Source of the DNA: a virus
Lineage: Duplodnaviria; Heunggongvirae; Uroviricota; Caudoviricetes
Virus record (IMG/VR): IMGVR_UViG_2526164667_000035
DNA length: 41,051 nt
Direction: 5' to 3' (one strand)
Positions within the stretch are counted from its first letter, which is position 1. Every line of letters begins with the position of its first letter. Position numbers and translations under genes: made by a program. This document shows, piece by piece, positions 287-39,182 of this stretch. Below the pieces are notes generated by a model, which saw nothing but the letters and a program-made list of their open reading frames with translations, was not told the origin of the DNA and searched no databases.

Positions 287-354
287 CCAGATATGTCATT
301 CAGCGAGAGCTAATGCCAATGGTGCGTGGATACGCTGGTCAGATGGTGCAATAG
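10..354 (+). CDS. Partial (5' truncated by window edge) duplicate of the tail-fibre N-terminal constant region carried in the inverted repeat, followed by a 22-codon unrelated tail; probably not an independent gene
   Basis: Translation is identical to residues ~32-119 of the 1387..2247 tail fibre up to GLGE, then diverges (ARYVIQ...) and stops after 22 codons. Confidence 0.45.
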
Positions 355-1372: not shown

Positions 1373-1386
1373 GGTATCCTCGCGCA

Positions 1387-2247: not shown

Positions 2248-2251
2248 GCCC

Positions 2252-4457: not shown

Positions 4458-5209
4458 CAGTTTACCCCATCGGTATTGCTTCCACCGCGCTGAACACCGC
4501 CATGAGTGTGCGTATCATCGATTGGCTTGCCGTTAGCCTTCACGCTACCCAAAAACTCAACAGCACCAGTGATTTTTGAAGCCACACCAGAAACAACAGA
4601 CCCCACCATGCCACCCATCCAGGTTAACAGGCCATGAATGGTTACTTTCTCAGAAAAATCAGCCAGGGGGGCAACCACATCAAGCCCCCCCGGAGCGACA
4701 ATTTTAATTTTCCTGGTATCAGGATTAAGCTCAAAATAGGTGCTGCCGTCGTCACTACGCAACTGTGTGGCACTGGTATTAATACCGCTAATCTTCCTAG
4801 CCTGCGACTGGGGACCGACAATACAAAACGCATCCGATAAATCATGCATTCTGTCATCAACAGGCTCCTGTATCCCGCCGCTCTGCCACCAGAAATCAAT
4901 ACAACGATCGGCAAAAACGACAAGACACTCATCCCCGGCTTTTACCGGAAAAGTCAACGTACAGCCTCCGCCGCGCGGGAATACCACTGGCACATCCGCC
5001 AGCAATGGGTAATTTTTGGTAATGCGGTTACCGTAGTTATCCTTTTCAACCGAACGGATAGCTGGCTGCACAACCGCCGTCACCGCGTCAGGAGCGAATG
5101 ACTGAATAATGCCAGGCAAGGCGACGCGGATCTGGTTCTTTGTTGTTTCCCGCTCGGACTTGAATGTTTCGGCAAGGTCACCGCTACGAGTCTGGTCTGA
5201 TATGGCCAT
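4457..5209 (-). CDS. Baseplate spike / assembly protein V-like (Mu gp45 position)
   Basis: Start placed at internal ATG (MAISDQ...) with AGGAG about 7 nt upstream; the longer ORF start would overlap the terminator hairpin. Confidence 0.6.
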   Translation of the reverse strand: MAISDQTRSGDLAETFKSERETTKNQIRVALPGIIQSFAPDAVTAVVQPAIRSVEKDNYGNRITKNYPLLADVPVVFPRGGGCTLTFPVKAGDECLVVFADRCIDFWWQSGGIQEPVDDRMHDLSDAFCIVGPQSQARKISGINTSATQLRSDDGSTYFELNPDTRKIKIVAPGGLDVVAPLADFSEKVTIHGLLTWMGGMVGSVVSGVASKITGAVEFLGSVKANGKPIDDTHTHGGVQRGGSNTDGVN

Positions 5210-21051: not shown

Positions 21052-21624
21052 TTAGCCCATCATTTTTCTATACGCCTCTGCAGCCTGCTCCGGCGTTAAG
21101 TTGGTAATTTCTGTTCTGACGGGTCCTCCATCAGCGCCAGTCACTTCATTTTTGACGTTGTCTTTAAACGCCTGAACAGAAACATGACGCCCAAGCAACT
21201 CAAGGTTTTTTACCTTATCAGGCCACTTAATCTTTTTAAGGATCCCGACCATTTCTCTGTCATCTCCTCGCCCTTCAAACATTTCAGCGAGGTTAAATCC
21301 ACTCAGGTACCGACGCCACGATTCCGGCCACGCAGACAGAGGCTTAATACTTAAATCGTCCTCCAGGATGTCAGCCACATCGAGCCTGTCGATCTCAACC
21401 AGTCGCATCAGCACATAATTCGCATCAATGCCCAGTTGATCAATACGCTCCTGCTTTAGCTCGTTGATGCGGGCACGTATCTCAGGTTTACCGTATAGTT
21501 CAGCCCCCGTAACATGTGCTCGCCTGGAGGCGTAGCCTGCGCGAATAGCTGCTTGTGTAGCATTAAGATCGACAAGAAACTCGCGACAAAACACCTCGTG
21601 TTTTGCTTTCAGCTCCTTAGTCAT
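21052..21624 (-). CDS. Terminase small subunit (P27-type)
   Basis: 190-aa ORF; N-terminus [31 protein letters not shown] resembles P27-family small terminase. Confidence 0.7.
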
Positions 21625-23459: not shown

Positions 23460-23801
23460 TTATCTTACCTTGATGCCTGATGCCGTCAGATGTTTACGAC
23501 AGTCCTGAATACCTTCGTTATAACCCGCATCGTAGAAGCTATCCGGCTTTGCCTTCAGCGCAGGAAGCGTAACGCTGGTAGCTCTTCGTTCGGCCAGAAC
23601 ACCTGCCTGAAAGAGTGTCCACATCAACTGAACTGCTGAATCACAGTAAGTAAAATCTTCACTGTACAATTCTCGTTCAATCCTGATGCCAAGTTGAGCC
23701 TTCATTGATGCGCCAATATTACCTTTGACCTGCAACGACAGATCTGGGTACCTCTGTTCCATGAAGCTTTCAAATCTGTTGCGAACGCTGATCAGAGCCA
23801 T
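23460..23801 (-). CDS. Hypothetical protein between Q and the late regulatory region
   Basis: 113-aa ORF with normal composition; no motif recognised. Confidence 0.4.
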   Translation of the reverse strand: MALISVRNRFESFMEQRYPDLSLQVKGNIGASMKAQLGIRIERELYSEDFTYCDSAVQLMWTLFQAGVLAERRATSVTLPALKAKPDSFYDAGYNEGIQDCRKHLTASGIKVR

Positions 23802-23832
23802 CTGGTTCCCTTACGTGATTGATTGCTGGATA

Positions 23833-24255
23833 TTATGCCGCCGAGCAGCTCCTACGCAAAGTCCTGATAGCCTGAGGCTTTGACTGAACCGACTGATCCA
23901 TTTCGAGCACCACATCCAGCATGGCTAAGCAACCGTCAATAAATCCCTCTGCCGCCTGAAGCCTCTTCAGAACGTGGGTGTGAGATACGCCGAGCTTCTC
24001 ACCCATCGCCCGCACGGGCATGGCCTGGACGTAATGCCACTCAAGGAGCGTGCACAGATACGGATCTTTTTTCTTCAGGCAGCTCATAGCGGAGTTGATG
24101 ATAAGACCGTCATTGTCACTGCATTTCAGCCTTCCAGACTGCGTCGCGGGTAGCAGATTCTTAAACCCAGCTGCAACAGGAGGAAAGTAGACGCTACCAC
24201 CTTCACTCGCTGCCCAGCCACCCCAGCGCTCTAAAACCTGTTGAATATTACGCAT
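23833..24255 (-). CDS. Late-gene antiterminator Q (QuuD-like family)
   Basis: 140 aa; N-terminus MRNIQQVLERWGGWAA...AAGFK and ...KRLQAAEGFIDG... resemble small Q proteins of lambdoid prophages by recollection; canonical position upstream of lysis genes. Confidence 0.65.
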   Translation of the reverse strand: MRNIQQVLERWGGWAASEGGSVYFPPVAAGFKNLLPATQSGRLKCSDNDGLIINSAMSCLKKKDPYLCTLLEWHYVQAMPVRAMGEKLGVSHTHVLKRLQAAEGFIDGCLAMLDVVLEMDQSVQSKPQAIRTLRRSCSAA

Positions 24256-24384
24256 AGCTCTGACCTCTACGTTTTGCTACGAAAAAATTTTCTGAGAACC
24301 ACGTTTGTTTATCCGTGGGTGTGGATAACGCAGTTCCGATTCGCTTATTACACGCTGTTATGTGCAAAAAATTCCTTGTTCGGC

Positions 24385-24565
24385 CTGTACCAACCTGTAC
24401 CCACCTGTACCAGCTCTTTTCAAACCTTTTCCCCAAGCGACTTATATATATATATGGGGTTCTTAGTAATTAGGTTGGTACAGATGGTACAGTTGGTACT
24501 GGCCTTTAAATTCAATTAGTTAAAATGTACCAACCTCTATTTTGAGGTTGGTACAGGTTGGGACA
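24385..24565. repeat. Iteron array and AT-rich tract: putative replication origin
   Basis: Three tandem CTGTACC(A/C)(A/G)C repeats at 24385..24414; (TA)6 tract at 24443..24455; three inverted-orientation copies at 24473..24502; perfect 13-bp inverted pair ATGTACCAACCTC / GAGGTTGGTACAG at 24525..24556 over the primase stop codon. Confidence 0.55.
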
Positions 24566-26729
24566 CCGCCTCAAAAATTCGAGTCATTTTCCCCCCAATT
24601 CGCCTTTGGGCACGCTTATACCCGCAATTTTGCAAAACATTACTAATTCGCATTTCTTCGCGTTTTCCGATGCGGTCAGGATTTAGCCCAATCGCATCAC
24701 GCAAAACATCACTTGCGCGTAAAAATTCGCAATTTCGCGGAAGTTCATTAGTCATCAGGTCTGGCGTGTCGAGCCATTTCTCTACCGTTTCAAGCCAAGC
24801 ATCCTTGATGGTGTACTGTTCATGGACACTCGCTGCCAGTTGTTCAGCCTCACGGAACTGGATACCCCCCAGACGCTGAAACACCTCACGAGCCTCAGCC
24901 CAAAGTAAAAGGAGATCTCTTTTTATCGCTTTCACGTCGACTTTCGACACTTCCACGGGGAGCCAGCGACGGTTACCAGTCTTGTCCGCAAGGAATTCGT
25001 CCTCATTGGTGGTACCAACGAACACCAGGCGACGAGGAAACTGGGTGGCGAACTCCCGGTATTTCGGGATCCAGTTTTCGTGAGTACGCGTCACAAACGC
25101 TTTGATTGACTCCAGCTCTTTGGTATTAAGTCCGCGCAGTTCACCAATCTCTGCCACCAGCCGACCACGCATTTTTCGAGCGAGATCATCGTCTTTTTCG
25201 GCAAAAGAGATTTCAGTAAAAAACGCAGGATCAGGGCTCAGTGCCTCCACTCCGGAAGACTTACCGCAGCCCTGCGGACCAACGAGGATCGGCACCATAT
25301 CCGCTTTGATGCCTGGCTCCAGTACTCGCCCCGCCAACGCGGTCCACATGTACATAGACACCGCACGGGTATAAGGCGTGTCGGCGGTACCGAAGTGCGT
25401 ATGGTAGAAACATTCGATGCGCGGCACGCCATCCCACTCCAGTCCGTTCAGCCAGGTGATCGCTGAATCGAATGGTTGTTCATCGGCTGCAAGTAACACC
25501 ACATCGCGAATAAGTTCACGACCAACAGGTTTAAATCCCCGCTTTTCCATCGTGATGCGCAGGCGCGCATAATCCGCATCGGTGAAGGCCTGCCACTGGC
25601 CGGAGCCTGCCTGGGCGAACATGATTTCGTCACGGAACTGGTCAAAGCGAATATCGATGTCCACGAAGTCAGGACGCACAACGGCTTTTGCCGCGTTGCT
25701 GATGGTGGCCTCGATGCGGCCCCATTTGTCGCGCTCGAACGCCGGCAGCGGTAACGGCTCGGCCACTTCGGTGCTGGTCAGGTCTTCGAAATCGTCGTTG
25801 CGGATCCCGATGGCATTAAGGAAATCGCCGTCGTCGCGGTGCGCGCAGCTAGCGTGCAGGCACTTAAAATGCCCCTGCTCAAAGCCCGCGGTACCGCCCG
25901 GGAAGTAAACCGTGCTCGTCGGGTCGCCGCCGGTGCTGTGGCCGTCTTCGAACGGGCAACGGATATAGCGCTCGCCGTTCGCGCCGTCCAGCAGCGTCCA
26001 GCCATTGGCATCGAGATATTCCGCCGTATCATCCGTGGCGCCGGGCGTGAAGGTTGAACGGTCGCGCATCTTCGTGCTGCCCGCTTCGGTGGTGACCGAC
26101 ACAGGTAACTGTTCCGCCAGTCGCTGCCACAGCGTTTCAAGCTGCTCACCAGTAATAGCCGGAGGTTCATCCGGCAAACCGCCGTCCCATTCGATACGCG
26201 CGCCGCTGCTGTGCGTACCGCAGGCAACAAACTGCTGCCCGTTCGCCAGCAGCTCGATAATCCCCATATCGCCCGCCAGACGGTGGATGCGCTTACGGAA
26301 ATCGCCGTCAACGGCCAGCAGGTACAGGCATTTGTTACTGTTGGCGCGCCAGCGACGCGGCGGCAGCTCACCAAGCAGCTGCACCAGCGTTTTGCGAATA
26401 TCGGCCTGGATATCTTCGTCTTCGCTGTCGCAGTCCAGCGCCAGCCAGCCATGGCCTGTACGCACGCAGATGCCATAATCCGGTTCATTCGACCAGCGGG
26501 CAAAATCATGCTCAGTAACAACATGACCGGTCCATTGAGCAATACCGGTGACCTGACGGTCCCGGTTATAGCGACTTGGCGTCTTACCCAGCGCTTTCAG
26601 TTTACTGTCAGGGGATATAGTCGCACCGGGGTTACATACAACTGGGAGAAGATGAGCAGTTCGCCCCAATACCAGGTCGAAATGAAACCACTCATCAGGC
26701 GTAGCTCCCCATGGTTTGCTATCAGACAT
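24537..26729 (-). CDS. Replication protein: primase-polymerase-like N-terminal region fused to P-loop NTPase/helicase
   Basis: 730 aa; acidic DxD-type motif (LALDCDSEDED), Cys/His cluster (CLHASCAH), Walker A GPQGCGKSS in the C-terminal half; ends within the iteron array. Confidence 0.65.
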   Translation of the reverse strand: MSDSKPWGATPDEWFHFDLVLGRTAHLLPVVCNPGATISPDSKLKALGKTPSRYNRDRQVTGIAQWTGHVVTEHDFARWSNEPDYGICVRTGHGWLALDCDSEDEDIQADIRKTLVQLLGELPPRRWRANSNKCLYLLAVDGDFRKRIHRLAGDMGIIELLANGQQFVACGTHSSGARIEWDGGLPDEPPAITGEQLETLWQRLAEQLPVSVTTEAGSTKMRDRSTFTPGATDDTAEYLDANGWTLLDGANGERYIRCPFEDGHSTGGDPTSTVYFPGGTAGFEQGHFKCLHASCAHRDDGDFLNAIGIRNDDFEDLTSTEVAEPLPLPAFERDKWGRIEATISNAAKAVVRPDFVDIDIRFDQFRDEIMFAQAGSGQWQAFTDADYARLRITMEKRGFKPVGRELIRDVVLLAADEQPFDSAITWLNGLEWDGVPRIECFYHTHFGTADTPYTRAVSMYMWTALAGRVLEPGIKADMVPILVGPQGCGKSSGVEALSPDPAFFTEISFAEKDDDLARKMRGRLVAEIGELRGLNTKELESIKAFVTRTHENWIPKYREFATQFPRRLVFVGTTNEDEFLADKTGNRRWLPVEVSKVDVKAIKRDLLLLWAEAREVFQRLGGIQFREAEQLAASVHEQYTIKDAWLETVEKWLDTPDLMTNELPRNCEFLRASDVLRDAIGLNPDRIGKREEMRISNVLQNCGYKRAQRRIGGKMTRIFEAVSQPVPTSK

Positions 26730-26904
26730 GGGTTAAGCCTTTTTGTTTGACTACATTTTTTTGCTCCAAAATCTTTTCAAGTTGAAGAGCTCTTAGCTCT
26801 GGGATTTCCTCCCCCCATTGAGATACGGCTCCTTTGGAAACCTTCAATAGTCTCGCTAGTTTCGCTTTACTTCCTGCAAGCTCAATTGCTTCTGCTTTTT
26901 TCAT
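26722..26904 (-). CDS. Cro-like HTH regulator (YdaS-like)
   Basis: 60 aa from the ATG (MKKAEAIELAGSKAKLARLLKVSKGAVSQWG...); divergent from the repressor gene. Confidence 0.6.
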   Translation of the reverse strand: MKKAEAIELAGSKAKLARLLKVSKGAVSQWGEEIPELRALQLEKILEQKNVVKQKGLTHV

Positions 26905-26913
26905 ACCCGTCAC

Positions 26914-27017
26914 CCAGGAAATATATGGTTATATGAGGTTAAGAAAACTAAACCTACAAGTCAAGAAAGCGATACCCTGATTAAGTTAAGCTAACTAAAC
27001 TATATGAGGGTAAAACC
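26914..27017. promoter_or_regulatory. Divergent promoter/operator region between cro-like and cI-like genes
   Basis: 104-bp AT-rich intergenic region with repeated TATATGAGG motif (about 26930 and 27001) and near-palindrome AGTTAAGCTAACT; operators not resolved. Confidence 0.4.
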
Positions 27018-27710
27018 ATGATTAATGATCGTATTCGCGAGGCTCGTCGCAATGTCCACCTAACGCAGGATGCGCTTGCTAAACGTATTGGTCTAACTAA
27101 AGCCACGATTTCACAATGGGAATCCGGAAACACCACACCTAACGGGAAAAATCTTATAAATCTGGCCGAAGCATTGAACGTTTCTCCAGAGTGGCTACTT
27201 TCAGGCAAAACAAGCGATACCAAAGAAATACATTCTAATGCACAAGTTGAGGGGGGGTTTTCTGTATGGGACTCATCAACGCCATTAGAGGATGATGAAG
27301 TGGAAATACCGTTCTATCAGGAAATTGAACTATCTGCCGGTAATGGTACTTATGTTGATATAGATCGAATGGGATGTAAGTTAAGATTCGCCCGTTCAAC
27401 GTTGCGCAAAGCAGGTGTTGACGTAAATTGTGCGGCTTGTGTCAGCATCCACGGCAACAGCATGGAACCGGTATTACCAGATGGCGCTGTCGTCGGCATA
27501 GATACATCAAAAACAGGTGTAAAAGATGGTCAAATGTACGCTATAGACCAAGACGGATTACTTCGTGTCAAACTATTGTACCGTCTCCCAAGCGGACTCC
27601 GGATACGCTCTTTCAATAGGGATGAATACGCAGACGAAGAGTATTTTAATCAAGAGGCTAATAAAATCAGGATTATAGGCCAAGTATTTTGGTACTCCGT
27701 TCTGCTCTGA
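27018..27710 (+). CDS. CI-like prophage repressor (N-terminal HTH, C-terminal S24 LexA-like peptidase domain)
   Basis: N-terminal HTH (LTQDALAKRIGLTKATISQWESG) and C-terminal GNSMEP serine motif with downstream Lys; GAGGG SD 7 nt upstream. Confidence 0.85.
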   Translation: MINDRIREARRNVHLTQDALAKRIGLTKATISQWESGNTTPNGKNLINLAEALNVSPEWLLSGKTSDTKEIHSNAQVEGGFSVWDSSTPLEDDEVEIPFYQEIELSAGNGTYVDIDRMGCKLRFARSTLRKAGVDVNCAACVSIHGNSMEPVLPDGAVVGIDTSKTGVKDGQMYAIDQDGLLRVKLLYRLPSGLRIRSFNRDEYADEEYFNQEANKIRIIGQVFWYSVLL

Positions 27711-28344: not shown

Positions 28345-28494
28345 ATGAAACCTGAACACATCCATCGACTGACGGGGCGCGATGTTCTCCGTTATCGCCG
28401 TAAAAACTTCGATTTGATGACCGGTCTGGCCGTTGCCACTGCGCTCGGTCTGATCATCACTTTCATTCTCCTTGTAGCGAGGCCCACAGTATGA
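28345..28494 (+). CDS. Small single-pass membrane protein (49 aa)
   Basis: Internal ATG with AAAGGA SD; C-terminal hydrophobic helix (LAVATALGLIITFILLVA); stop overlaps the next start. Confidence 0.35.
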   Translation: MKPEHIHRLTGRDVLRYRRKNFDLMTGLAVATALGLIITFILLVARPTV

Positions 28495-29393
28495 GTTTAG
28501 AAACCAATCTAGAACTTAATAATCAACTTCTGGCACAACATAATGCGCTGCTTGAACGTCTTATCCGCACAATGGCATCAGGCATTGTTATGCATCCTGA
28601 CACGATTTCACGAGTGCAGGAATGTCGGGATACAGCAACTGAAACTGAAAATATGTCAGCGGCAATGACACTGGATGATCTGGAGTTCAGCGACGTTATC
28701 GCACTGGCTGGTTTCTACCCGGTAGCCACCCCTATCACAGAAGACATGCTGCAACGTGCTGTTGCCTACCGTGATGCTGAAGGCGATAAACGAGTAGTTC
28801 AGATTGATGCTCTCGACAGCGCATTGCAGGGCGTCAAACGAGCCAGGGCGCTGCTTAAACCTGCTCTCCTGGACCTGTCCCGTAACATCCTTAAGTTCTG
28901 GGACGACCTGCCAACCATCGGCGAGCGACGTGCTTTTGCCGAGCAGCTACTTGATGCACCTGCGGATGGGCGTGATGAAGTTAAGCCGAAAAAGGCCAGT
29001 AACAAGGATGGAGAACGCACGGGGCCGTTTTACGTCAAAAATGTATCCGGCACAGCAGCCAGTGAACTCCACACCTTACGCAAGTTGAACGAGATGCTGA
29101 AAAAAGGCCATATCGAGATCAACCGTGTTGAGTACCTTCAGCTGCAGGAAGAATTTGCACGCAGAGACGCAGCAAATTCCAGCCAGAATAATGACGCCAA
29201 AGATGACCATACAATTGATTTCGCGGCACTACGCAAACAAGCTGAAGGGTTGATCCTCCAGTTAGCAAAAGGGGGTTACCGGGCAGAAGCTATTGCAATT
29301 CTGGAAAAACAGGGAGCCAGGAAACTTGGTGAAGTAACGGATGAAAATCTCGCTGAAGTAATCACCCTGGCTGAAAAAGCACTGGAGGGTTAA
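28491..29393 (+). CDS. Hypothetical protein (300 aa)
   Basis: ATGA start overlap with the upstream gene; no motif recognised; mixed charged / helical composition. Confidence 0.5.
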
Positions 29394-29395
29394 TC

Positions 29396-30697
29396 ATGCC
29401 AGACGTTCATGCACAACTTTCTCCATCATCAGCGCATCGATGGATGCTCTGCCCAGGAAGTCTGGCGCTGGAGGCCACACAACCGGATAAAGAAACAACT
29501 TTTGCAATCGAGGGCACTGCAGCGCACGCGCTTGCTGAAAAAGTTCTACGAAACAGGCAAAGCCACCCGGAACACTACGCCGGATGCAATGTTTCTATGT
29601 TTCTCGGCTCATACCCCCTTCGCGAAAATCCTGATGATACATCTGGCCCACAGGTGGATGATGAAATGGTCGAAGCCGTTGGCCGGTATGTTGATACGGT
29701 CTGGACTCTTGCACAGAATAATGAACTATTGGTTGAACAACGTGTTGATTTCTCACATATAACGGGTGTGGAAGAATCTTTCGGAACTGCCGACGGCATA
29801 ATCATCGCTGGTAACGAATTACAAATCCACGACCTGAAATATGGCAAAGGCGTCCGCATTGATGCAGAACAAAATGAGCAACTACAACTGTATGCTCTGG
29901 GTGCGCTTGAACAATTCAGCATGCTGTATGACTTTGAAACTGTAAGATTATTTATTCACCAACCAAGGCTCAACCACGTTTCAGAATGGTCGTTAACCGT
30001 ACAGGAACTTCAGTCTTTCGGTGAACGGGCGCTGGAGGCCGCAACCAGTGCGATCCTTGTTCTCAATATTGCTGAATGCGAAGGCATTGAGACACTACCG
30101 CTGGAAAACTTCATACCTGGAGAAAAACAGTGCCGCTTCTGTAAAGCAAAAGCTATTTGCACTGCCCAGAAAATGCAGCATTTACAAACAGCGGCCAGCG
30201 ATTTTGAAGATCTGACAAAGCCTGTCAGCGAAATAATCACCAATGCCAGCGCACGTGTACCTCTGTTAACCATTGAGCAGCTTGCAGAGATCTATAGCCA
30301 GGCCAACTTTATTGAATCCTGGCTAAAGGCAGTACGGGACCGGGTTCACAATGAACTCAATGCCGGACATCCGGTACCGGGGTTTAAACTGGTAACAGGA
30401 AAACAAGGTAACCGGGCCTGGAGTGACGAAGAGGCAGCTCGCGCACTTCTGAAGGACCAGTTCAGGTACAAAACTGAAGAAGTATTCGACTTTAAACTTA
30501 TTAGTCCCACAAAAGCCGAAAAACTTATCAAAAAGGCCAGTCCGCGCCGTTGGTCAAAAGTCGAGGCACTGATAACACGAGCTGATGGTAAACCCACCGT
30601 CGTTCCCGAGTCAGACCCACGCCCCGCACTCAATATCAACCCTGTAAATGATTTCGACGACGTATCCGACGATACGCTAACCGCAGACCTTATCTGA
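29396..30697 (+). CDS. PD-(D/E)XK-type nuclease, DUF2800-like (Cas4/RecB-like with C-terminal Cys cluster)
   Basis: N-terminal [15 protein letters not shown] and Cys cluster [10 protein letters not shown], matching DUF2800 hallmarks as I recall them. Confidence 0.6.
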
Positions 30698-30712
30698 TTT
30701 AAGGAAATCCCC

Positions 30713-31261
30713 ATGAAACTGAAGCTGAACAATGTTCGTCTGGCCTTCCCGTCTCTGTTTGAAGCTAAAACTGTAAACGGCGAAGGCGATCCGCGTTTCT
30801 CCGCAGTATTTTTAATGTCTCCCAAACACCCACAACTGGAAGAAATCCGTAAAGCTATGAAGCAGGTAGCGAAGGAAAAATGGGGGGAGAAGTGGGAGTC
30901 CATTTATAACCAGCTGGAGAAAAAACTCAATCTGTGCCTGCATGATGGTGATGAAAAAGCAGAGTATGAAGGCTTTCCCGGCAATTTCTTCCTGAACGCT
31001 GCTAACAAAGCGCGCCCAGCTGTTCTTGATCGCGATCGTTCGCCACTAATTCAGGCTGATGGACGTCCCTATGCAGGGTGCTATGTAAACGCCGTTATCG
31101 ATATCTGGGCACAGGACAATAATTTCGGTAAACGCATTAATGCCTCACTCGGCGGAGTCCAGTTCCTGCGAGACGGCGATGCATTCGCTGGCGGCGGAGT
31201 GGCAAGCGCTGACGATTTCGACGATATCAGCGAAGGTGCTGATGCTGAAGCACTAATTTAA
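30713..31261 (+). CDS. DUF2815-like protein (phage single-strand DNA-binding-like)
   Basis: N-terminus MKLKLNNVRLAFPSLFE resembles DUF2815; sits between DUF2800 and the DNA polymerase as in known phage replication modules. Confidence 0.55.
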   Translation: MKLKLNNVRLAFPSLFEAKTVNGEGDPRFSAVFLMSPKHPQLEEIRKAMKQVAKEKWGEKWESIYNQLEKKLNLCLHDGDEKAEYEGFPGNFFLNAANKARPAVLDRDRSPLIQADGRPYAGCYVNAVIDIWAQDNNFGKRINASLGGVQFLRDGDAFAGGGVASADDFDDISEGADAEALI

Positions 31262-31312
31262 AAATATTCATCCCCCAGCTACGTGCTGGGGTATCTCATG
31301 AGGGAAAGGATA

Positions 31313-31954
31313 ATGTCACAGCCCGTATTAACTAATCACCTTAAAACTCAAATCATCAATAACGCACTTGAGAAAGCGGGTATCCCCAAACGTAAATCAG
31401 CACTACGAGCTGCTCGTGTTGAATGGGCCGAACGTGTTCGGCTTGCAGCTATCGGGGGCGTAGAGAAAGACGCTGAAATATTAAAAAATATAAAAAAGAT
31501 TGAATCCATGGTAACAAAAATCCCTGATTCATTAAAAACCAATAGTTCTTTAATTCGAAAAGATTGCTGCATATATCTCAATCTGGCTGGAGCCAGAGCA
31601 AACATTTATTTCAATGGCAACTACAGAGGTTATGAATCAGGAGCCCCCGAGCATATTAATAAAATAGCACCTGCAGAATTTACTCTACTTGGCGAAGATC
31701 CTCTGGTAACGGAGTTTTATAGCTTTGATGCTCTCTACACACAAATTAAAAGTGATGAAACCGAAATCATACAGAACGTCAGCGCGGCTCTAAATAAAGT
31801 TCGGACAGTAAAACGATTACTGGATGTATGGCCCGAAGCTAAAGAACTGCTTCCAACAGACGCACCGCCAGTCCCTTTAGCACCAGCAGTACATCGAGAG
31901 ACATTAAATGAAATGATAGGCCTTCCTACCAATACAGTGTCTGATACTCAATAA
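31313..31954 (+). CDS. Hypothetical protein, AT-rich (213 aa)
   Basis: Start at ATG with GAAAGGA SD; markedly lower GC than flanking genes; no motif recognised. Confidence 0.5.
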   Translation: MSQPVLTNHLKTQIINNALEKAGIPKRKSALRAARVEWAERVRLAAIGGVEKDAEILKNIKKIESMVTKIPDSLKTNSSLIRKDCCIYLNLAGARANIYFNGNYRGYESGAPEHINKIAPAEFTLLGEDPLVTEFYSFDALYTQIKSDETEIIQNVSAALNKVRTVKRLLDVWPEAKELLPTDAPPVPLAPAVHRETLNEMIGLPTNTVSDTQ

Positions 31955-32637
31955 CAAGGGGGATGCTTATTATATGATTTTGAACGTTTTACAATCTCGT
32001 TAAGAGGCGTGAAATCAAAATCTCTGAATAACACATCAGGATACTTCGCTCTTGCTTTATCCAGCAGGCCAGTTAAAGTATTTTTTGTGTTACCCAACAT
32101 TGTATTAACCGCCACTACATGTCTAATTTCTGGAGGTTTATCTATACCACCAGAAATTGCTTCATTAAGAACCGACGCCAGTGGGGTTTGTCCCTTACTT
32201 GTTGAATCCCACAGCGTCATTAACAGACGAGCTGCGTCTATAAATAGCTTTTTGTCAGCATTTGGCTTGACAGTAATACCGGAACTACCAGAGCCAGAAC
32301 CGGAACGTTCTATTGCTGCACTGGTATCCGATTTCATAGGATTAAATAACGGCAGCTCTGTACAACCGATACGCCGAATGAAATCCTTTGCAACATCTCT
32401 ACCACAGAAAAAAGCCCCTGTACAATTTTCATCAGAGCGTTTTTTAAATGAAAAACAATAGTACTGATCGGTTAACGGATAACCGGAATAACTGGTTTTA
32501 GTTTGTCCAGTAATAAGTTTCAGGTGTGCAACAGGCTGAATAATAAAATCCCGAACTATCGCATCTTTTATGTCGTTACCACGGTGACAATAATATTCAG
32601 GTAATCCATTAGGCTGTCTCTTATTACCCACAGTCAT
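31948..32637 (-). CDS. Hypothetical Cys-rich two-domain protein on the opposite strand, AT-rich (229 aa)
   Basis: Strong AAGGAGG SD; N-terminal region with Cys/His positions (CH...C...C...C...C), SGSGSGSSG linker, then a C-terminal domain; 7-bp convergent overlap with 31313..31954. Confidence 0.55.
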   Translation of the reverse strand: MTVGNKRQPNGLPEYYCHRGNDIKDAIVRDFIIQPVAHLKLITGQTKTSYSGYPLTDQYYCFSFKKRSDENCTGAFFCGRDVAKDFIRRIGCTELPLFNPMKSDTSAAIERSGSGSGSSGITVKPNADKKLFIDAARLLMTLWDSTSKGQTPLASVLNEAISGGIDKPPEIRHVVAVNTMLGNTKNTLTGLLDKARAKYPDVLFRDFDFTPLNEIVKRSKSYNKHPPCY

Positions 32638-32698
32638 TAGTTGCCTCCTTTAATTCATGATATCTAGCATTTAACCATATACCATATGAGGATATTTT

Positions 32699-34762
32699 AT
32701 GTCCAATATACTATGGGGCGACCTGGAAACCTATTGTGACATTCCGATCAACAACGGTACCCATGCGTATGCCGAAGGCGTTGAAGTGATGCTTTTCGCA
32801 TGGGCTATCAACGACGGGCCAGTAAATGTGTGGGATATCACTGCCGGTGGTGGTATTCCACACGGCTTATACGAAGCAATCGCAGACCCTGAAACCCTGC
32901 TTTATTTCCATAACTCTCACTTCGACCGCACCGTTCTGCGTTATGCAATGCCGCGACTGGCACCGCCAGTCGAACGTTGGCGCGACACGATGGTGCAGGC
33001 GCTGGCGCACGGTCTCCCGGGGTCTCTGGGGGAACTCTGCGAAATACTAGGCGTCCCGCAAGACAAAGCGAAGGACAAAGAAGGTAAAGCGCTGATCCAG
33101 CTGTTCTGTAAGCCACGCCCGAAAAACAGCAAACTGCGTCGGGCCACCAGTAAAACCCACCCGGAAGAATGGCGGCGCTTTGTTGATTACGCCGGACTGG
33201 ATATCGAGGCAATGCGCGAAGTCTATAAACGTCTGCCGAAGTGGAATTATCAGGGGACAGAGCTGGCGCTCTGGCATCGTGATCAGCAGATCAACGACCG
33301 GGGCGCCTGCATGGACATGCAACTCGCGCGCGCTGCGATCGAAGCGGTAGACCAGGAGCAAAAGCGCTTGGCAAAGCGTACACAGGAAATGACTGATGGC
33401 GAAGTGCAGGCAGCCACACAACGGGACGCGTTGATTAAGCACATCGTTGAATCCTACGGTGTGGAGCTACCAGACATGCAACGCAGTACCCTGGAACGTC
33501 GTATAGCCGACCCCGATTTACCATCTGCCGTGAAAGAACTGCTGGCTATCCGCCTGCAAGCCAGTACTACCAGCACCAGTAAATACAAGGCACTGATGAA
33601 AGGCGTAAGCCACGACGGGCGCTTACGCGGTACGCTACAGTTCTGCGGGGCGTCACGTACCGGTCGTTGGGCCGGACGGCTATTCCAGCCCCAGAACCTT
33701 CCCCGCCCTTCACTAAAACAGGAACAAATAGACGAAGGCATCGAAGCACTGAAAGCCGGATGTGCAGACCTGCTGTTTGACAATATCATGGAACTAACCA
33801 GTTCAGCGTTACGTGGCTGCATTATCGCGCCAACAGGCAAAAAACTGGTGGTAAGTGACTTGTCAAACATTGAAGGCCGTATGCTGGCATGGCTGGCGGG
33901 AGAAGAATGGAAACTGAATGCATTCAGAGAGTACGACGCCGGAACGGGTCCGGACTTATATAAACTGGCGTATGCAAAAGCTTTCGATATTGCACCAGAT
34001 GATGTTGATAAACACATGCGTCAGATCGGTAAAGTCATGGAACTCGGTCTGGGTTATGGAGGTGGTGTATCGGCTTTCATCACTTTTGCTCTGGTTTACG
34101 GTCTCGATCTCGACGAGCTGGCGAACGCCGCGCTGCCAAACATTCCCCGCGATGTTATCCGCGAGGCGAAAAGCTGGTACGACGAATCGGTTAAACGTAA
34201 GTCGACCTTTGGCCTGTCCGAGCGTGTATTCATCGCATGTGACTCGCTCAAGCGCCTGTGGCGCAGGGCGCACCCGGCGACCTGCGATTTCTGGTACGAG
34301 CTGGAGCGCACTGTCCGCACAGCAATCGCCACACCGCAAAAAACATTGTATTGCGGTTATCTTAAAATCCGCCGCGATGGCGCGTGGCTGCGCATACAGC
34401 TACCATCCGGACGCGCTGTATGCTACCCGTCTCCGGTTATCGAACAAGGGAATATCACCTACATGGGTGTTAACTCTTATTCGCGTAAATGGCAACGACT
34501 CAAAACCTACGGCGGAAAGCTGGTGGAGAACGTCACCCAGGCGGCCGCCCGCGACGTTCTGGCCGGAAACATGCCGCTTATCGAAGATGCCGGTTACAGC
34601 ATTGTGCTGACGGTACACGACGAGGTGATCACCGAATCACCTGACACAGAAGATTTCAACGATAAAGCGCTTTCCGCGCTTCTCTCCACTAACCCCGAAT
34701 GGGCGCCCGATATCCCACTGAACGCTGGCGGTTTTGAGGCGTACCACTACCGTAAGGATTAA
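32699..34762 (+). CDS. Family A DNA polymerase with N-terminal 3'-5' exonuclease domain
   Basis: 687 aa; exonuclease-type motifs ([15 protein letters not shown]) and polymerase motifs ([16 protein letters not shown]; VHDEV). Confidence 0.85.
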
Positions 34763-34767
34763 CTCCT

Positions 34768-34983
34768 ATGTCATTTAAATACCGGGATAATCCACTTTAT
34801 TACAGGGCTGCAAGGGAGGCTTTGCGACTTGAACAATCCGGCGAATATGACCGGGCAGCGAAGGTCTGGGCAAAAGCCAACCGCGAATCACATCACGAAC
34901 TGAATCAGGAATGGAGTGAACGCAGATCTGATTTTTGCCTGATGCAGAATATGCGTGAAAAGCGTAAGGCGGTCGAAGAATGA
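34768..34983 (+). CDS. Small hypothetical protein (possibly ANR-like small regulator)
   Basis: 71 aa; vague resemblance to small prophage regulators by memory only. Confidence 0.35.
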   Translation: MSFKYRDNPLYYRAAREALRLEQSGEYDRAAKVWAKANRESHHELNQEWSERRSDFCLMQNMREKRKAVEE

Positions 34984-35279
34984 TCGTTTACGTTGCCGGG
35001 CCGATGAGCGGTTACGAGCAATTTAACCGCCCGGCCTTTCATTCCGCAGCAAAGAGGCTAACGGACAAGGGATATGTTGTGCTTAACCCCGCAACTTTAC
35101 CCGATGGTTTGACACAGGCTCAGTACATGGACATCTGCCTCGCAATGCTTCGCTGTGCCGATACGATTTATATGCTCAAAGAGTGGGAGTACTCTGCCGG
35201 CGCACGTGCAGAAAACGCGTTGGCAGAGAAACTGGAATTGAATGTGCTTTTTGAAGAGTGGGATTCAGATGGCCTATGA
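34980..35279 (+). CDS. DUF4406-like protein (nucleoside 2-deoxyribosyltransferase-like fold)
   Basis: 99 aa; N-terminal MIVYVAGPMSG...VLNPA pattern typical of DUF4406 as I recall it. Confidence 0.5.
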   Translation: MIVYVAGPMSGYEQFNRPAFHSAAKRLTDKGYVVLNPATLPDGLTQAQYMDICLAMLRCADTIYMLKEWEYSAGARAENALAEKLELNVLFEEWDSDGL

Positions 35280-35562
35280 ACGTGAGAGCCTTATCGAAAA
35301 GCACCTCGTCGCTGAAGTGAAAAAGGCTGGCGGTGTGGCCTTTAAGTTCGTATCTCCCGGTCGCCGCTCGGTACCGGATCGCATTGTTCTGCTACCCGGC
35401 GGCCGTCTTGTTTTCGTTGAATGCAAAGCACCCGGCAAAGCACCACGCGCCGACCAGTTGCGCGAGCACGAGCGGCTGCGCGAGCTGGGCTTTACCGTGG
35501 TGGTGCTGGATAGCAAAAATCTGGAGGGGATATTGTGCGGGGAGCCTATTACAACGAAATAG
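35269..35562 (+). CDS. VRR-NUC domain nuclease
   Basis: 97 aa from the internal ATG; PDRIVLLPGGRLVFVECKAPGK motif; typically paired with an SNF2-like helicase in phage genomes. Confidence 0.6.
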   Translation: MAYERESLIEKHLVAEVKKAGGVAFKFVSPGRRSVPDRIVLLPGGRLVFVECKAPGKAPRADQLREHERLRELGFTVVVLDSKNLEGILCGEPITTK

Positions 35563-36548
35563 ACCCTAACGCAGCACAATGGCTGCGTAACCTTATTGCT
35601 GCGGGTCATATCGCCCCGGGTGAAGTTGATGAAAGGAGTATCGAAGATGTCGCACCAGACGACTTGCGCGGATTCACACAGTGCCATTTCTTCGCCGGGA
35701 TCGGCGTCTGGTCTTATGCTCTGCGTCTGGCCGGACGGCCGGATAACAAACCGGTCTGGACAGGAAGTTGCCCGTGCCAGCCTTTCAGCTCGGCTGGTAA
35801 AAGCGCTGGGTTTGATGACGAGCGGCACCTATGGCCAGCACTATTCCACCTCATCAGCGAGCGACGCCCTAAGCTGGTATTTGGCGAACAGGTTGCGGGA
35901 GTCAATGCCTGGTTCGATCTTGTACAAACTGACGTGGAAGCAGTGGACTACGCCTTTGGGCTTGTCCCGTTTCCGGCTGCGGGCGTCGGTGCCCCGCATA
36001 TCCGAGATAGAGCGTATTGGGTGGCCGACGCCAGCGGCGAGCGACCACAGCGGTGGCGAAAGCGCCTCAATAGCATTGAGGAAGATGTCTGGAGATCGTC
36101 GACCGTCCGGCAACACGCTACACAGCTCCCTGCGGGATTTTGCTCACCTGGCGGGGTGGTACACCCCAACCTGCAACACAAACCCACAGCCGGAGACAAA
36201 ACGCGGTCTAGAAACCTTAGCGGGGCTATCCAGATTAGCGGGATGGCCGACAGTGACGACGGTCGACAACAACCAAGTTCGTGGCGAGGGCCCAGCAGCC
36301 AATCATACCAAACGGGGAACGCCCCTCGGCGGCCCAATACGATTAACAGCTGCTGGGATGATGCTGACTGGCTCCTCTGCCGGGATGGTCGCTGGCGGCC
36401 AGTTGAATCCGGCACATTCCCGTTGGCTCATGGGATTACCTCCAGAGTGGGACGACTGCGCGCCTACGGCAACGCGATAGTCGCACCAGCTGCCGCAACA
36501 TTCATCCGCTCGTTTATGGAATGCGCAGGATACGACCTCATCTGTTGA
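35535..36548 (+). CDS. DNA (cytosine-5) methyltransferase
   Basis: Motif I FAGIGVWS (FxGxG), motif IV PCQPFS, ENV-like GEQV, RxR-type HIRDRAYWV; GTG start with GGAGGGG SD. Confidence 0.75.
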
Positions 36549-36550
36549 TA

Positions 36551-37480
36551 TTATGGGTTAGGTAATGCACGATTATTAAAATTATCAATAATTTGCAACG
36601 CCGCCGTTTGTCCGCCAGCCAATAGCCCTGCTTTACTCAGAAGGTATTTAGGGAATTTGGTTGGTAAATAAACCGCACGAAGCCAGTGCCTGAATACAGC
36701 TAAAGCATTATCAGGGTATGCATAGACCATTTGGGGATTACTTGCGGATTGGTTGAATTCTTCAGGGTAATAGTGCTGGCAGCGTTGTCTTGGGCCAATC
36801 GTCGCATCGTAGTTGGAAGAAGACCAGTAGCGAGCCCAGTGCTGGCCCACACTGATATCCGGTACAGTGTACTGGTTTACTGCTAATCCAGCATGGATGA
36901 GGTCTACCATTAAACCGGCAATTTCATTGAATACAATGAAATGTCCAGCAGGAACCGAGTTTGCCCCATGCATGATTGACACACGAGAGTGGTAATGACG
37001 CCAAGGGTCATCAGGTATGTAGCCAAGCGCTGTATAGATGTAACCACGCATACCCGCACGGGATAGCTCACGGAAAAACTGTAGCGCAGTAGGAGTTGCA
37101 GCACTTTGAGATACAAATGCGTAGAACTCCAGAATAGCCATACAGACTACTTCTGGGTACGCATAATGGACTGACCCATCTTTGTTGATTGGGATATAAA
37201 GAGTCGGCTCATTATATTGCTCACGCTGTAAATATGAGCTGATAAACTCCATACGCCCTCGAGCGAAAACTCCGTGGCGGAAGCTCTCTTCCCACTCTCG
37301 AGAAATATCCGCGATATTACTACGATGCACCCCGCAAATCCTGGCCAGCCCATTTTGCGTAAGGTAGGAGATCCCGTTCTGAAGAACCCCCATTTCTATT
37401 TCGTTAAAAACCCCCTCAGTACTAACACCTAAGTCCAGTATTTGTTGGGGTGCGGGTTGCTGACCACCAAATTCACTCAT
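36551..37480 (-). CDS. Hypothetical protein with putative N-terminal HTH, opposite strand to neighbours (309 aa)
   Basis: Segment ISYLTQNGLARICGVHRSNIADISREW looks like a helix-turn-helix; convergent with the methyltransferase and divergent from the helicase. Confidence 0.5.
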   Translation of the reverse strand: MSEFGGQQPAPQQILDLGVSTEGVFNEIEMGVLQNGISYLTQNGLARICGVHRSNIADISREWEESFRHGVFARGRMEFISSYLQREQYNEPTLYIPINKDGSVHYAYPEVVCMAILEFYAFVSQSAATPTALQFFRELSRAGMRGYIYTALGYIPDDPWRHYHSRVSIMHGANSVPAGHFIVFNEIAGLMVDLIHAGLAVNQYTVPDISVGQHWARYWSSSNYDATIGPRQRCQHYYPEEFNQSASNPQMVYAYPDNALAVFRHWLRAVYLPTKFPKYLLSKAGLLAGGQTAALQIIDNFNNRALPNP

Positions 37481-37590
37481 TTTATTGTTTATCCTTACAT
37501 TTAACCCTGTGGGTTACCTTCGCTGTGAATAGTAAAAATTGCCAGGCCAACTGGTGCGACCTCTAACTAGCAAAAATTTGCGAGATTATA

Positions 37591-38985
37591 ATGCCTCAAA
37601 ACTTTATCCCTCGCCCCTACCAAGATCTCATTATCAACCACGAAATCGACATCATGCGCTGCAACATCTGGGCAGGTATGGGAATGGGTAAAACCGTAGC
37701 GACACTCACCACGCTGGAAGATCTTTTCATGGCTGGAGCAGAAACACGCCCCGCGCTGGTCCTCGCGCCGCTACGCGTTGCAGCAAGCACCTGGCCTGAT
37801 GAAGCTGTTAAATGGGGGCATCTGCGTAATATTGAGGTGCAGCCGATTGTTGGTAACGCCAAAGCGCGCTCTGCAGCGCTGGCGAACAGCAACGCAAGCG
37901 TGTTCACCATCAACTACGATAACCTTGTCTGGCTGGTTGAGGAATTGGGAGAACGATGGCCGTTCGGTACTGTCATTCCAGATGAAAGCACCCGGCTAAA
38001 ATCCTTCCGGCTGCGAGGTGGTGGTAAGCGCGCGGCGGCGCTGGGCAAAGTGGCGCATAAGTATGTCCGGCGCTGGATAAATCTCACCGGTACGCCAGCA
38101 CCGAACGGCCTGGTAGATTTGTGGGGACAAGCGTGGTTTGTGGACCAGGGGCAACGTCTCGGACGCACTTACGGCGCGTTTACCTCACGCTGGTTCAACT
38201 CGATACAGTTTCCGGGGCAGAGCTGGACCAAACTGGAACCGTTTGCTCACTCACAGGGTGAAATACAGCGAGCGTTAGCCGATGTGACCCTATCGCTGAA
38301 TGCGGCCGACTGGTTCGATATCAAAGACCCCATCCATAACGTAATCCGCGTGGATATGCCGCCGAAGGCCCGTCAGCAGTATCGTGAAATGGAAAAGGAA
38401 ATGTTCCTCGAGCTGAATGGCGAAGGCATCGAAGCACCGAACGCCGCGGCAAAGACACTGAAGTGTCTGCAAATCGCCAGTGGCGCAGTATACACAGACG
38501 ACACCGGAAGTTGGTCAGAACTGCATGACACCAAACTGCAGGCGCTGGACAGCATACTGACCGAAGCAGCTGGCGCACCTGTGCTGGTTGCTTATCACTG
38601 GAAACACGATCTTGAACGCTTGCTTAAAGCATTCCCTCGCGGTCGTCACCTCGACCAAGATCCACAGACACTGCGCGACTGGAATTCCGGAAAGATTCCT
38701 GTTCTCTTTGCACAGCCAGCCAGCGCGGGCCACGGTCTGAACATGCAGGACGGCGGAAACATACTGGTATTTTTCTCACACTGGTGGGACCTGGAGCAGT
38801 ATCAGCAAATTATTGAACGTATCGGCCCCACCAGGCAGATACAGGCCGGACACAATCGTCCGGTATTTATTCACCACATTATTGCGGCCGACACTATGGA
38901 CGAAATGGTGATGGAGCGGCGCAACTCAAAACGAACAGTGCAGGACATCCTGCTCGATGCCATGAAAAAGAGAGGTATAGCATGA
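37591..38985 (+). CDS. SNF2/DEAD-like superfamily 2 helicase
   Basis: Walker A GMGKT, DExx-type box IPDESTRLK, C-terminal helicase domain. Confidence 0.7.
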   Translation: MPQNFIPRPYQDLIINHEIDIMRCNIWAGMGMGKTVATLTTLEDLFMAGAETRPALVLAPLRVAASTWPDEAVKWGHLRNIEVQPIVGNAKARSAALANSNASVFTINYDNLVWLVEELGERWPFGTVIPDESTRLKSFRLRGGGKRAAALGKVAHKYVRRWINLTGTPAPNGLVDLWGQAWFVDQGQRLGRTYGAFTSRWFNSIQFPGQSWTKLEPFAHSQGEIQRALADVTLSLNAADWFDIKDPIHNVIRVDMPPKARQQYREMEKEMFLELNGEGIEAPNAAAKTLKCLQIASGAVYTDDTGSWSELHDTKLQALDSILTEAAGAPVLVAYHWKHDLERLLKAFPRGRHLDQDPQTLRDWNSGKIPVLFAQPASAGHGLNMQDGGNILVFFSHWWDLEQYQQIIERIGPTRQIQAGHNRPVFIHHIIAADTMDEMVMERRNSKRTVQDILLDAMKKRGIA

Positions 38986-39182
38986 GCGAGAAACCCGACG
39001 ATTTACTCACCCCAGATGAAGTATGCCAAAAGTTAGGTATTACACAGAAAACGCTATGTGAGTGGAATATTAAGCATCGTCATCGGGCTATCCTGGCACC
39101 AATTCGTTTCAGTGCAAAAGTAGTTCGTTATGAGCGCCGAAATGTCGACGCTTTTATTCAAAAGTGTCGCAGCCAGTATTAA
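38982..39182 (+). CDS. Excisionase / AlpA-like HTH protein
   Basis: 66-aa ORF with HTH-like segment (LTPDEVCQKLGITQKTLCEW); ATGA overlap with the helicase stop; adjacent to the integrase. Confidence 0.5.
   Translation: MSEKPDDLLTPDEVCQKLGITQKTLCEWNIKHRHRAILAPIRFSAKVVRYERRNVDAFIQKCRSQY

Follow-up and report, generated by a model that had tools for sequence, protein, structure and literature searches.

The stretch of viral DNA analysed here (41,051 nucleotides, hereafter the window) encodes terminase, portal, tail, baseplate, lysis, cI/cro/Q and integrase functions and thus represents a complete phage, the first 23.8 kb of which (structural, packaging and lysis genes) are 97% identical over 84% to the induced myophage vB_EcoM-611R5. 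The interval from cro to Q is occupied by one VapE gene, and domain searches detected neither Phage_rep_O nor P-family domains there. A dense group of 9-bp repeats (iterons) lies across the 3′ end of the VapE gene. The features of the region, together with two distant genes referred to below, are as follows.

24537-26729, minus strand: replication initiator gene (730 aa), from domain and family searches
24567-24722, minus strand: predicted winged-helix coding region, residues ~670-721 (AF2 model)
24573-24587, minus strand: codons of wing residues 715-719 (M-T-R-I-F), which covary with the iteron word and are not iteron DNA
24526-24565, unstranded: stop-proximal iteron triplet, from the repeat scan and the alignment of relatives
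24501-24525, unstranded: AT-rich spacer that separates the main array from the stop-proximal triplet, TTTTAACTAATTGAATTTAAAGG in gene orientation
24474-24500, minus strand: gene-proximal array of three head-to-tail iterons with a 9-bp period, conserved in position and changing in word by class
24415-24473, unstranded: conserved core between the two arrays, holding (TA)6T at 24443-24455
24386-24414, plus strand: gene-distal array, in which three iterons recur every 10 bp in the orientation opposite to that of the proximal array, its position kept in relatives
24363-24373, unstranded: conserved flank directly outside the distal array, AATTTTTTGCA in gene orientation
24386, 24396, 24406 and 24526, plus strand: starts of TGTACCAAC copies (≤1 mismatch scan)
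24474, 24483, 24492, 24547 and 24557, minus strand: starts of TGTACCAAC copies (≤1 mismatch scan)
21052-21624: small terminase gene
39179-40582: integrase gene

The initiator matched the PHROG DNA helicase and primase families. Residues ~393-657 form an SF3/AAA+ VapE-like helicase (Pfam VapE-like_dom, E 2.3e-60), and a phmmer search against the PDB aligned residues 393-657 with SaPI1 Rep bound to DNA (7pds_A, E 9.1e-34). Residues ~48-185 make up a Prim-Pol (AEP) primase domain (PF09250, E 8.6e-11), which the whole-protein Pfam scan missed and a separate scan of the N-terminal 330 aa brought out. No Pfam family matched the C-terminal domain and no NCBIfam family was found for the 730-aa protein, while an AF2 model of residues 620-730 predicted a winged helix at residues ~670-721, with a wing β-hairpin formed by residues 704-711 and 714-721. 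Since a search with the C-terminal 111 aa gave short fragments only, the alignment for structure prediction was padded with full-length homologues. The tail of the protein (residues 722-730) is encoded by iteron DNA. We found no published experiments on this replication-module family, and the window's module is absent from the Eru scheme for replication regions of non-lambdoid Stx phages.

Iteron array and AT-rich core

Scanning with TGTACCAAC at ≤1 mismatch located nine copies within 180 bp (24386-24565) in both orientations, confirming the repeat cluster of the original prediction. At this threshold about 9 matches are expected by chance in the whole window; the remaining ~41 kb contained 6 scattered matches, which is chance level, and no second cluster, and in second-order Markov simulations (200 runs) the most crowded 200 bp contained 1-3 copies. 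The iteron region also has the densest 7-mer repeat among all 200-bp stretches of the window. From 28 nt inside the gene end the iterons extend to 151 nt beyond the stop codon (24537-24539), in keeping with the predicted position at the 3′ end of the replication gene. Read in gene orientation, two direct iterons and one inverted iteron at the stop codon are followed by a spacer, three direct iterons, the (TA)n core and three inverted iterons.

Within the stop-proximal triplet, the minus-strand iterons 24557-24565 and 24547-24555 fall in the last codons of the gene and the plus-strand iteron 24526-24534 lies directly past the stop codon, an arrangement seen in 16/16 representative relatives aligned, whatever their iteron word, as well as in the further loci displayed. 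For the perfect inverted pair that spans the stop codon the original prediction gave 13 bp, but its arms proved to be 12 bp long (24526-24537 and 24544-24555); the perfect 13-bp pair is that of 24384-24396 with 24545-24557, which joins the two outermost iteron blocks.

The repeats are, as anticipated, arranged around a (TA)6 tract. The (TA)6T sequence at 24443-24455 is flanked by CCCC/GGGG. Among all 16-bp stretches of the window, the one containing it ties for the lowest duplex stability, and at scan sizes of 24-100 bp its instability is in the top 0.1% of the window; the tract is the probable site of first melting. The spacer at 24501-24525 ranks third among the least stable 24-bp stretches; its sequence is common to many relatives, not all. 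Column entropy in the alignment of relatives is near zero beside the TA tract, while the iteron positions vary, and the core motif GGGGAAAAGGTT (gene orientation; plus strand 24423-24434) reads GGAAAGGTT even in a Burkholderiales relative. The outer flank is present in enterobacterial, Xenorhabdus and Burkholderiales relatives (alignment columns ~293-308). A perfect DnaA box at 24320-24328 was set aside as a part of the origin, because the flank holding it is replaced in many relatives. The GC-skew profile over 1.2 kb exhibited a sign change only, caused by iteron orientation, and no Rfam family was found in 23800-27100.

Iteron words and initiator tails in related loci

The locus was compared with 70 distinct origin regions from IMG/VR and E. 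coli, plus loci from a scan of GTDB genomes. The same layout was observed in about 80 related loci, among them loci from E. coli, Xenorhabdus, Photorhabdus and Pectobacterium, the range extending to a Burkholderiales MAG whose protein is 51% identical. Xenorhabdus yunnanensis XENO-10 carries two different origin types (L091 and L092). The array remains beside rep even where another gene follows: Q lies downstream here, the gene for a 91-aa protein in another locus (L034).

The iteron word itself varies, with 14 top 9-mers that make up about 11-13 types; beside TGTACCAAC, these include the commonest class, TGGAACCAC, and TGTACCCAC. The word changes in all three blocks at once, and the core between them is nearly invariant. 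The initiator is likewise almost invariant across relatives apart from its last ~25 residues, and it is in the final ~35 columns of the protein alignment that mutual information with iteron class is highest. In the alignment, the wing motif GK-xx-(R/K)-x-(F/W/Y) differs by iteron class: its aromatic residue is W when iteron position 7 is C (52/52 loci) and F or Y when that position is A (27/27 loci), a pairing that agrees in 79/79 scored loci. Each iteron word pairs with its own set of wing motifs, the exception being GKVLKVW, which is shared by the closely related TGTAACCAC and TGTATCCAC types. The expectation that the repeats would be conserved along with the initiator was thus borne out in both respects, the layout being kept in ~80 relatives and the words tracking the wing motif.

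Because the covarying codons adjoin the iterons, part of this association could be linkage within a recombining cassette; the concerted change of nine dispersed copies, as read from the alignments, argues against pure hitchhiking. The same concerted change is no proof that the rep product is the protein that binds the iterons, which the covariation makes probable. Conserved layout, concerted words and wing motif together lend strong comparative support to the predicted iteron origin bound by its adjacent initiator, and we consider 24363-24566 very likely to be the lytic replication origin of the temperate phage, operating in the manner of SaPI/PICI origins.

The hairpin at the stop codon invites a different reading, in which the repeats are mainly a terminator or attenuator that ends the early rightward operon and controls read-through into the Q antiterminator gene, the extra copies being incidental. 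The 12-bp perfect stem closes a 6-nt loop and is followed by TTTTAACTAA on the coding strand, the RNA fold is stable (-23.5 kcal/mol, z -3.7), and P4 likewise has a terminator between alpha and crr; moreover, no promoter-like site was detected between the array and Q, so that Q is probably read from upstream. However, the hairpin is formed by only one of the three iteron blocks, and only about half of the hairpin groups have a T-run, which is absent in the commonest class and in the TAGAC classes although the hairpin and the other six iterons persist there. A terminator would explain neither the opposed arrays around the conserved (TA)n core nor why every copy varies in step with the wing motif, and termination as the main role is unlikely. 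The suggestion that the array is partly a terminator accordingly holds for this allele, in which the hairpin precedes TTTT on the minus strand, and fails across the family, in which the T-run is not conserved.

Covariation points to probable binding by the adjacent protein and not to the effect of that binding, which is also consistent with the repeats being operators by which the replication protein or another regulator would control transcription of Q or of its own operon, with no origin function. The array lies directly upstream of Q, and initiators commonly autoregulate via their own iterons. A stringent sigma-70 scan revealed no promoter-like site in 24256-24536, a weak negative, since the expected early promoters escaped the scan as well. 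The array remains linked to rep where the downstream gene is not Q, a (TA)n core that is conserved, maximally unstable and set between opposed arrays is a feature of origins and not of operators, and the homologous SaPI system has the same layout as an origin, all of which makes a purely regulatory function very unlikely.

Pac sites and attP arms, too, can carry clusters of short repeats facing both ways, and the array might by this token be a packaging or recombination site (pac, cos or att-like) for a terminase or recombinase. Yet the small terminase gene is 3 kb away and the integrase gene lies at 39179-40582, neither is linked to the array in relatives, and the replication protein is the only one whose change tracks the iteron word; we regard this reading as highly improbable.

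Known replicons and the proposed mechanism

By sequence homology, the SaPI Rep-ori replicon of Staphylococcus aureus (Rep1/PriRep and ori; PDB 7PDS) comes closest, its helicase domain being homologous to that of the window's initiator (E 9e-34). In SaPIs a helicase that loads itself serves as the initiator and reads the iterons through a C-terminal winged helix, and the ori lies directly 3′ of rep, with six to twelve iterons split by an AT-rich region and at least two on each side of it in opposite directions (PMC9371898). In the window, too, the array lies immediately 3′ of rep; three opposed iterons, where SaPIs have at least two, stand on each side of the AT-rich region, the initiator has a predicted C-terminal winged helix, and the iteron word appears, from the comparison of relatives, to be matched to the C-terminal domain of its cognate Rep. 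Primase and Rep are fused in one chain in SaPI5, as in the window. The iterons are 9 bp long here and 5-6 bp in SaPIs, the extra triplet overlapping the stop codon is unlike SaPI, and the winged helix has no detectable sequence similarity to SaPI1 Rep, the phmmer match ending at residue 657. A SaPI is a phage-inducible satellite island, whereas here a temperate Enterobacterales myophage of full size, organised as cI/cro/Q, carries the replicon; because the window encodes a complete phage, we place it in the same replicon type as SaPI/PICI and in another element type.

Gram-negative PICI replicons such as pri-rep-ori of EcCICFT073 resemble the window in host group and layout. In these elements a fused primase-helicase gene is followed directly, on its 3′ side, by ~9-bp iterons in two sets, one on either side of an AT-rich stretch. 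The cloned pri-rep-ori segment replicates autonomously (PMC6092414), as do cloned rep-ori segments of published SaPIs and Gram-negative PICIs (PMC9371898; PMC6092414). The PICI iterons TGTCTACC are visible in CFT073. Homology to the E. coli PICI Pri-Rep was rejected (best BLASTP E 3.2); the Gram-negative PICI protein belongs to a different primase family, and PICIs are satellites.

The likeness to P4 alpha and its ori drawn in the original prediction stands as an analogy and fails both as homology (best BLASTP E 0.65) and in cis layout. P4 alpha also combines primase, helicase and a C-terminal origin-binding domain in one polypeptide, the P4 type 1 iterons are short (8 bp) and occur in both orientations, and crr follows the alpha gene directly on its 3′ side, after a terminator, much as the window's array lies 3′ of its gene. 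However, P4 requires two elements, ori (9086-9809, annotated about 2.1 kb past the far end of alpha) and crr (4291-4590), where the window has one cluster. The alpha primase is of the Toprim type, not Prim-Pol; the P4 record annotates alpha only as 'DNA primase'. Like lambda, with its O protein and ori-lambda, the phage of the window is temperate and has a cI/cro switch, a probable iteron origin beside an AT-rich stretch, and early transcription that runs rightward through this origin. The lambda origin lies inside the O gene and has four 19-bp iterons, and P recruits host DnaB; the window's initiator, unlike lambda O, carries its own helicase and primase.

We propose that one polypeptide, comprising the Prim-Pol primase, the VapE-type hexameric helicase and the C-terminal winged helix, would act throughout initiation. 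The winged helix may bind the 9-bp iterons, the opposed iterons flanking the core would place initiator assemblies around the (TA)6 tract, and this tract would then melt. The helicase could load itself with no separate loader, the Prim-Pol domain would prime, and extension would probably be carried out by the phage's own family-A polymerase with a single-strand-binding protein, both from the leftward operon. The second wing strand, GK-xx-(R/K)-x-(F/W/Y), would set the iteron word that is read, through presumed residue-base contacts. Since the origin lies within ~300 bp of the wing codons, tail and iterons may be inherited or exchanged as one small specificity cassette, and such exchange would have produced the 14 top 9-mers and about 11-13 origin types in otherwise near-identical replicons.

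A module whose sole annotation is 'VapE domain-containing protein' is thereby given a probable replication origin and specificity determinant. An origin organisation seen as a hallmark of PICI satellites is present here in a complete temperate phage. Two further ideas, a recognition code in the wing that would make wing and origin a swappable cassette, and a timer from replication to late genes, are offered tentatively and are, taken jointly, rather doubtful. Under the first, F/Y would read A and W would read C at iteron position 7, and the two residues after GK would set iteron positions 3-5. The ~300-bp unit of wing and origin would on this view be swappable and have given rise to a dozen or more mutually orthogonal replicons, so that related prophages could coexist in one cell. 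The timer is suggested by the position of the origin between the last early gene and Q, with the stop-codon triplet doubling as a hairpin: initiator bound to the triplet might gate read-through into Q and so tie late expression to replication.

The related loci also provide a natural series of about a dozen matched pairs of initiator tail and iteron in nearly identical backgrounds, which could be used for studies of DNA reading by winged helices and for building orthogonal replicons. The replication module was found in 109 of 5426 complete E. coli genomes (about 2%) and also occurs across Enterobacterales.

Genome context and the replication gene

The window is the genome of a temperate phage, or most of one, with the following genes around its replication gene:

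27018-27710, plus strand, cI-like repressor
26722-26913, minus strand, cro
24537-26729, minus strand, single replication gene (730 aa)
281-bp spacer between the replication gene and the Q-family antiterminator
23833-24255, minus strand, Q-family antiterminator; holin, small terminase and myovirus structural genes lie beyond it
28491-38985, plus-strand genes, leftward operon

The first 23.8 kb, the structural, packaging and lysis region, matches two induced E. coli myophages, vB_EcoM-611R5 and 606R2 (97% identity across 84% of it), and shows a further relationship to Salmonella phage SEN34. Genes of the leftward operon code for a DUF2800 PD-(D/E)XK nuclease, an Enc34-type ssDNA-binding protein, the nucleotide-modification-associated protein Nmad5, a DNA polymerase of family A, a C5 cytosine methylase and a SNF2-type helicase, and also for an integrase. 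For a lambda-regulated prophage, this replication and DNA-modification gene set is unusually full. Of 5426 complete E. coli genomes, 109 carry the replication gene together with the spacer downstream of it, chromosomal in every case, and the gene is annotated there as 'VapE domain-containing protein' and nothing more.

The replication protein contains a Prim-Pol domain (PF09250, residues ~48-185, E 8.6e-11), with the same precomputed match in many relatives, and a VapE-like domain (residues 427-639, E 2.3e-60). Residues 393-657 align with chain A of PDB 7PDS (E 9e-34), a cryo-EM structure showing SaPI1 Rep bound to DNA (PMC9371898), and a Pfam search of the last ~110 residues matched no family. 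Judged by structural genes, the nearest sequenced phage is vB_EcoM-611R5; it has just the Prim-Pol part in common (ON470588.1, 11829-12797; residues 1-321, 62% identity), so its helicase part must differ, suggesting domain-level mosaicism inside the replication gene. The same split was also seen in several GTDB loci (L096-L104 and L106).

Iteron arrays downstream of the replication gene

The predicted repeat cluster and TA tract were both recovered. Nine copies of the iteron word TGTACCAAC (at most one mismatch) lie within 24386-24565, versus six dispersed over the rest of the window; the chance expectation for the whole window is about nine, and simulated sequences held at most three matches per 200 bp. 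The elements are arranged as follows:

24386, 24396, 24406, plus strand, gene-distal array of three head-to-tail iterons, 10-bp period
24443-24455, (TA)6T between the two opposed arrays
24474, 24483, 24492, minus strand, gene-proximal array of three head-to-tail iterons, 9-bp period
24526 (plus), 24547 and 24557 (minus), gene-end (stop-proximal) triplet

No 16-bp duplex stretch in the 41 kb is less stable than the one containing the (TA)6T (tied first), and with larger windows the tract still ranks in the top 0.1%. A perfect inverted pair does span the stop codon, with 12-bp arms (24526-24537 and 24544-24555) and a 6-nt loop; the 13-bp length first ascribed to it fits a different, long-range pair. 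In this allele the hairpin (12-bp stem, -23.5 kcal/mol) is followed by TTTT and has the intrinsic-terminator form that the original prediction had allowed for in part. However, the T-run is absent from the commonest word class (TGGAACCAC) and from the TAGAC classes, so termination cannot be the conserved role of the triplet, which may instead be an auxiliary binding block.

The comparison drew on 80 loci from IMG/VR, on 24 from a GTDB scan of one genome per species, and on three relatives with annotation: Yersinia phage YeP4 and the E. coli strains 97-3250 and Sx181-0-1. The annotated and IMG/VR sets gave 70 distinct downstream regions, and all readable ones share one layout in gene orientation: a pair of direct iterons within the final codons, followed by the stop, a short loop and a single inverted iteron; a spacer; three direct iterons; the conserved core TTACTAAGAACCCCA(TA)nAGTCG..GGGGAAAGGTTAGAAAA; and three inverted iterons. 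This layout is also kept in Xenorhabdus, Photorhabdus, Pectobacterium, Trabulsiella and Pluralibacter, and in a Burkholderiales MAG though protein identity there is only 51%. Beyond the distal array the sequence is replaced in many relatives, where the next gene encodes a 91-aa protein rather than Q; the array, the core and the short flank AATTTTTTGCA (24363-24373, gene orientation) still follow the replication gene. By this sequence comparison, the array goes with the replication gene and not with Q.

Two motifs persist out to the Burkholderiales relative and could be priming or loading signals: AATTTTTTGCA, immediately outside the distal array, and GGAAAGGTT (24423-24434, gene orientation), located between that array and the TA tract. 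The sole perfect DnaA box of the window (TTATCCACA, 24320-24328, minus strand) is part of an imperfect palindrome, TTATCC..N8..GGATAA, ~58 bp past the last iteron. Its flank is common to some relatives (variants TTATTCACG and TTACCCACG) and wholly replaced in others, indicating that the box is not in the conserved origin. Photorhabdus caribbeanensis (~2775-3100 of its locus, TGGAACCAC class) has an expanded origin with an additional copy of the stop-proximal block and more widely spaced distal iterons.

Covariation of the iteron word and the predicted wing

Layout and core are kept across relatives, but the iteron word itself is not: we found 14 different top 9-mers, several of them register or flank variants of one word, leaving about 11-13 iteron types. 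Besides TGTACCAAC, TGGAACCAC, TGTAACCAC, TGTTACCAC, TGTATCCAC, TGTCCCAAC, TGTCCCCAC, TGAAGCCAC and TGTAACAAC, which recur in the table below, they include TGTCACCAC (the Burkholderiales MAG), CTAGACCAC and three flank variants of xTAGACAAC (CTAGACAAC, GTAGACAAC and TAAGACAAC). Inside the arrays column entropy is periodic, with high values at positions 3-5 of the iteron and values close to zero at its C-AC end, and it is near zero in the core beside the TA tract. Each locus uses one word across all copies of all three blocks, the sole exception being TGTATCCAC loci, which also contain TGTAACCAC copies. That scattered copies vary in step around an unchanging intervening sequence indicates a common reader.

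The protein alignment is nearly invariant over its full length, and variation and mutual information with iteron class fall in the last ~35 columns, after the invariant ...CGYKR.QRR..GK. In the AF2 model, which predicts a C-terminal winged helix, the covarying residues fall on the second strand of the wing, a beta-hairpin.

Main wing motif after GK for each iteron word; minor variants exist within several words.
MT-R-I-F: TGTACCAAC (the window)
KM-R-I-F: TGTCCCAAC
KC-K-V-W: TGGAACCAC (commonest class)
VQ-R-V-W: TGTAACCAC
VL-K-V-W: TGTATCCAC
LM-K-V-W: TGTTACCAC
QQ-R-V-F: TAGACAAC
QI-R-V-W: TAGACCAC
KQ-R-I-W: TGTCCCCAC
SQ-R-V-Y: TGTAACAAC (Xenorhabdus)
MT-K-A-W: TGAAGCCAC

Among 79 scorable loci, C at iteron position 7 was paired with W as the wing aromatic (52/52) and A with F or Y (27/27). 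This association is not a trivial overlap, because the wing codons (24573-24587) come before the coding iterons, whose first residue is 722. Several classes have their stop codon within the first iteron and so leave the tail untranslated, which makes this iteron-encoded stretch dispensable. Linkage alone could drag along a neighbouring polymorphism, yet it is insufficient here, since nine copies in three blocks stay identical and the protein change is confined to the predicted DNA-contacting hairpin. We favour, with moderate confidence, the wing residues as direct specificity determinants.

GKVLKVW is paired with both TGTAACCAC and TGTATCCAC. Five TGTATCCAC-class loci (L029, L035, L036, L038 and L050) have TGTAACCAC as the word of their stop-proximal triplet and of one distal-array copy; either the same wing reads both words (VL-K-V-W versus VQ-R-V-W) or these loci are recent recombinants.

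Proposed mechanism and known systems

The region is very probably a replication origin bound by the adjacent protein, and the comparative evidence is the decisive part of the case: the conserved layout and the covariation with the wing strongly support the original reading, an iteron origin with its initiator alongside, which was essentially right. Its likening to P4 alpha stands as analogy only, without sequence similarity and with two separated cis elements in P4; the P4 alpha primase is of the Toprim type rather than Prim-Pol. A lambda O/P-type origin was excluded by gene content.

The closest known system is SaPI Rep-ori, with a homologous helicase, a C-terminal winged helix, the ori directly 3' of rep and, in the same geometry, oppositely pointing iterons flanking an AT-rich centre. 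Origin binding that needs no ATP, as well as melting and helicase activity, has been demonstrated for SaPI Rep (PMC9371898). By this homology the phage protein would be a self-loading initiator-helicase: its winged helix would dock on the iterons, the (TA)n core bracketed by the opposed arrays would open, hexamers would load, and the fused Prim-Pol domain would prime. The phage-encoded polymerase and SSB fit a largely self-sufficient replisome.

Gram-negative PICIs have the same organisation, and the EcCICFT073 rep-ori is capable of autonomous replication (PMC6092414). We located this origin region in CFT073, where its iterons (TGTCTACC) are visible; EcCICFT073 Pri-Rep revealed no similarity to the phage replication protein. 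Here a SaPI/PICI-type organisation is present in a complete phage, and our non-exhaustive search of the iteron, primase-helicase, prophage and non-lambdoid Stx-phage replication literature found no published account of this module's origin.

The kind of system is already known. What this case adds is a set of about a dozen natural initiator-tail/iteron pairs with a simple amino-acid-to-base association, offering a hypothesis on winged-helix recognition and on how related prophages avoid sharing an initiator. Xenorhabdus yunnanensis XENO-10 has two module copies on two contigs (L091 and L092) with differing words (TGTAACAAC; TGTAACCAC/TGTATCCAC), a single case consistent with diversification that avoids cross-talk.
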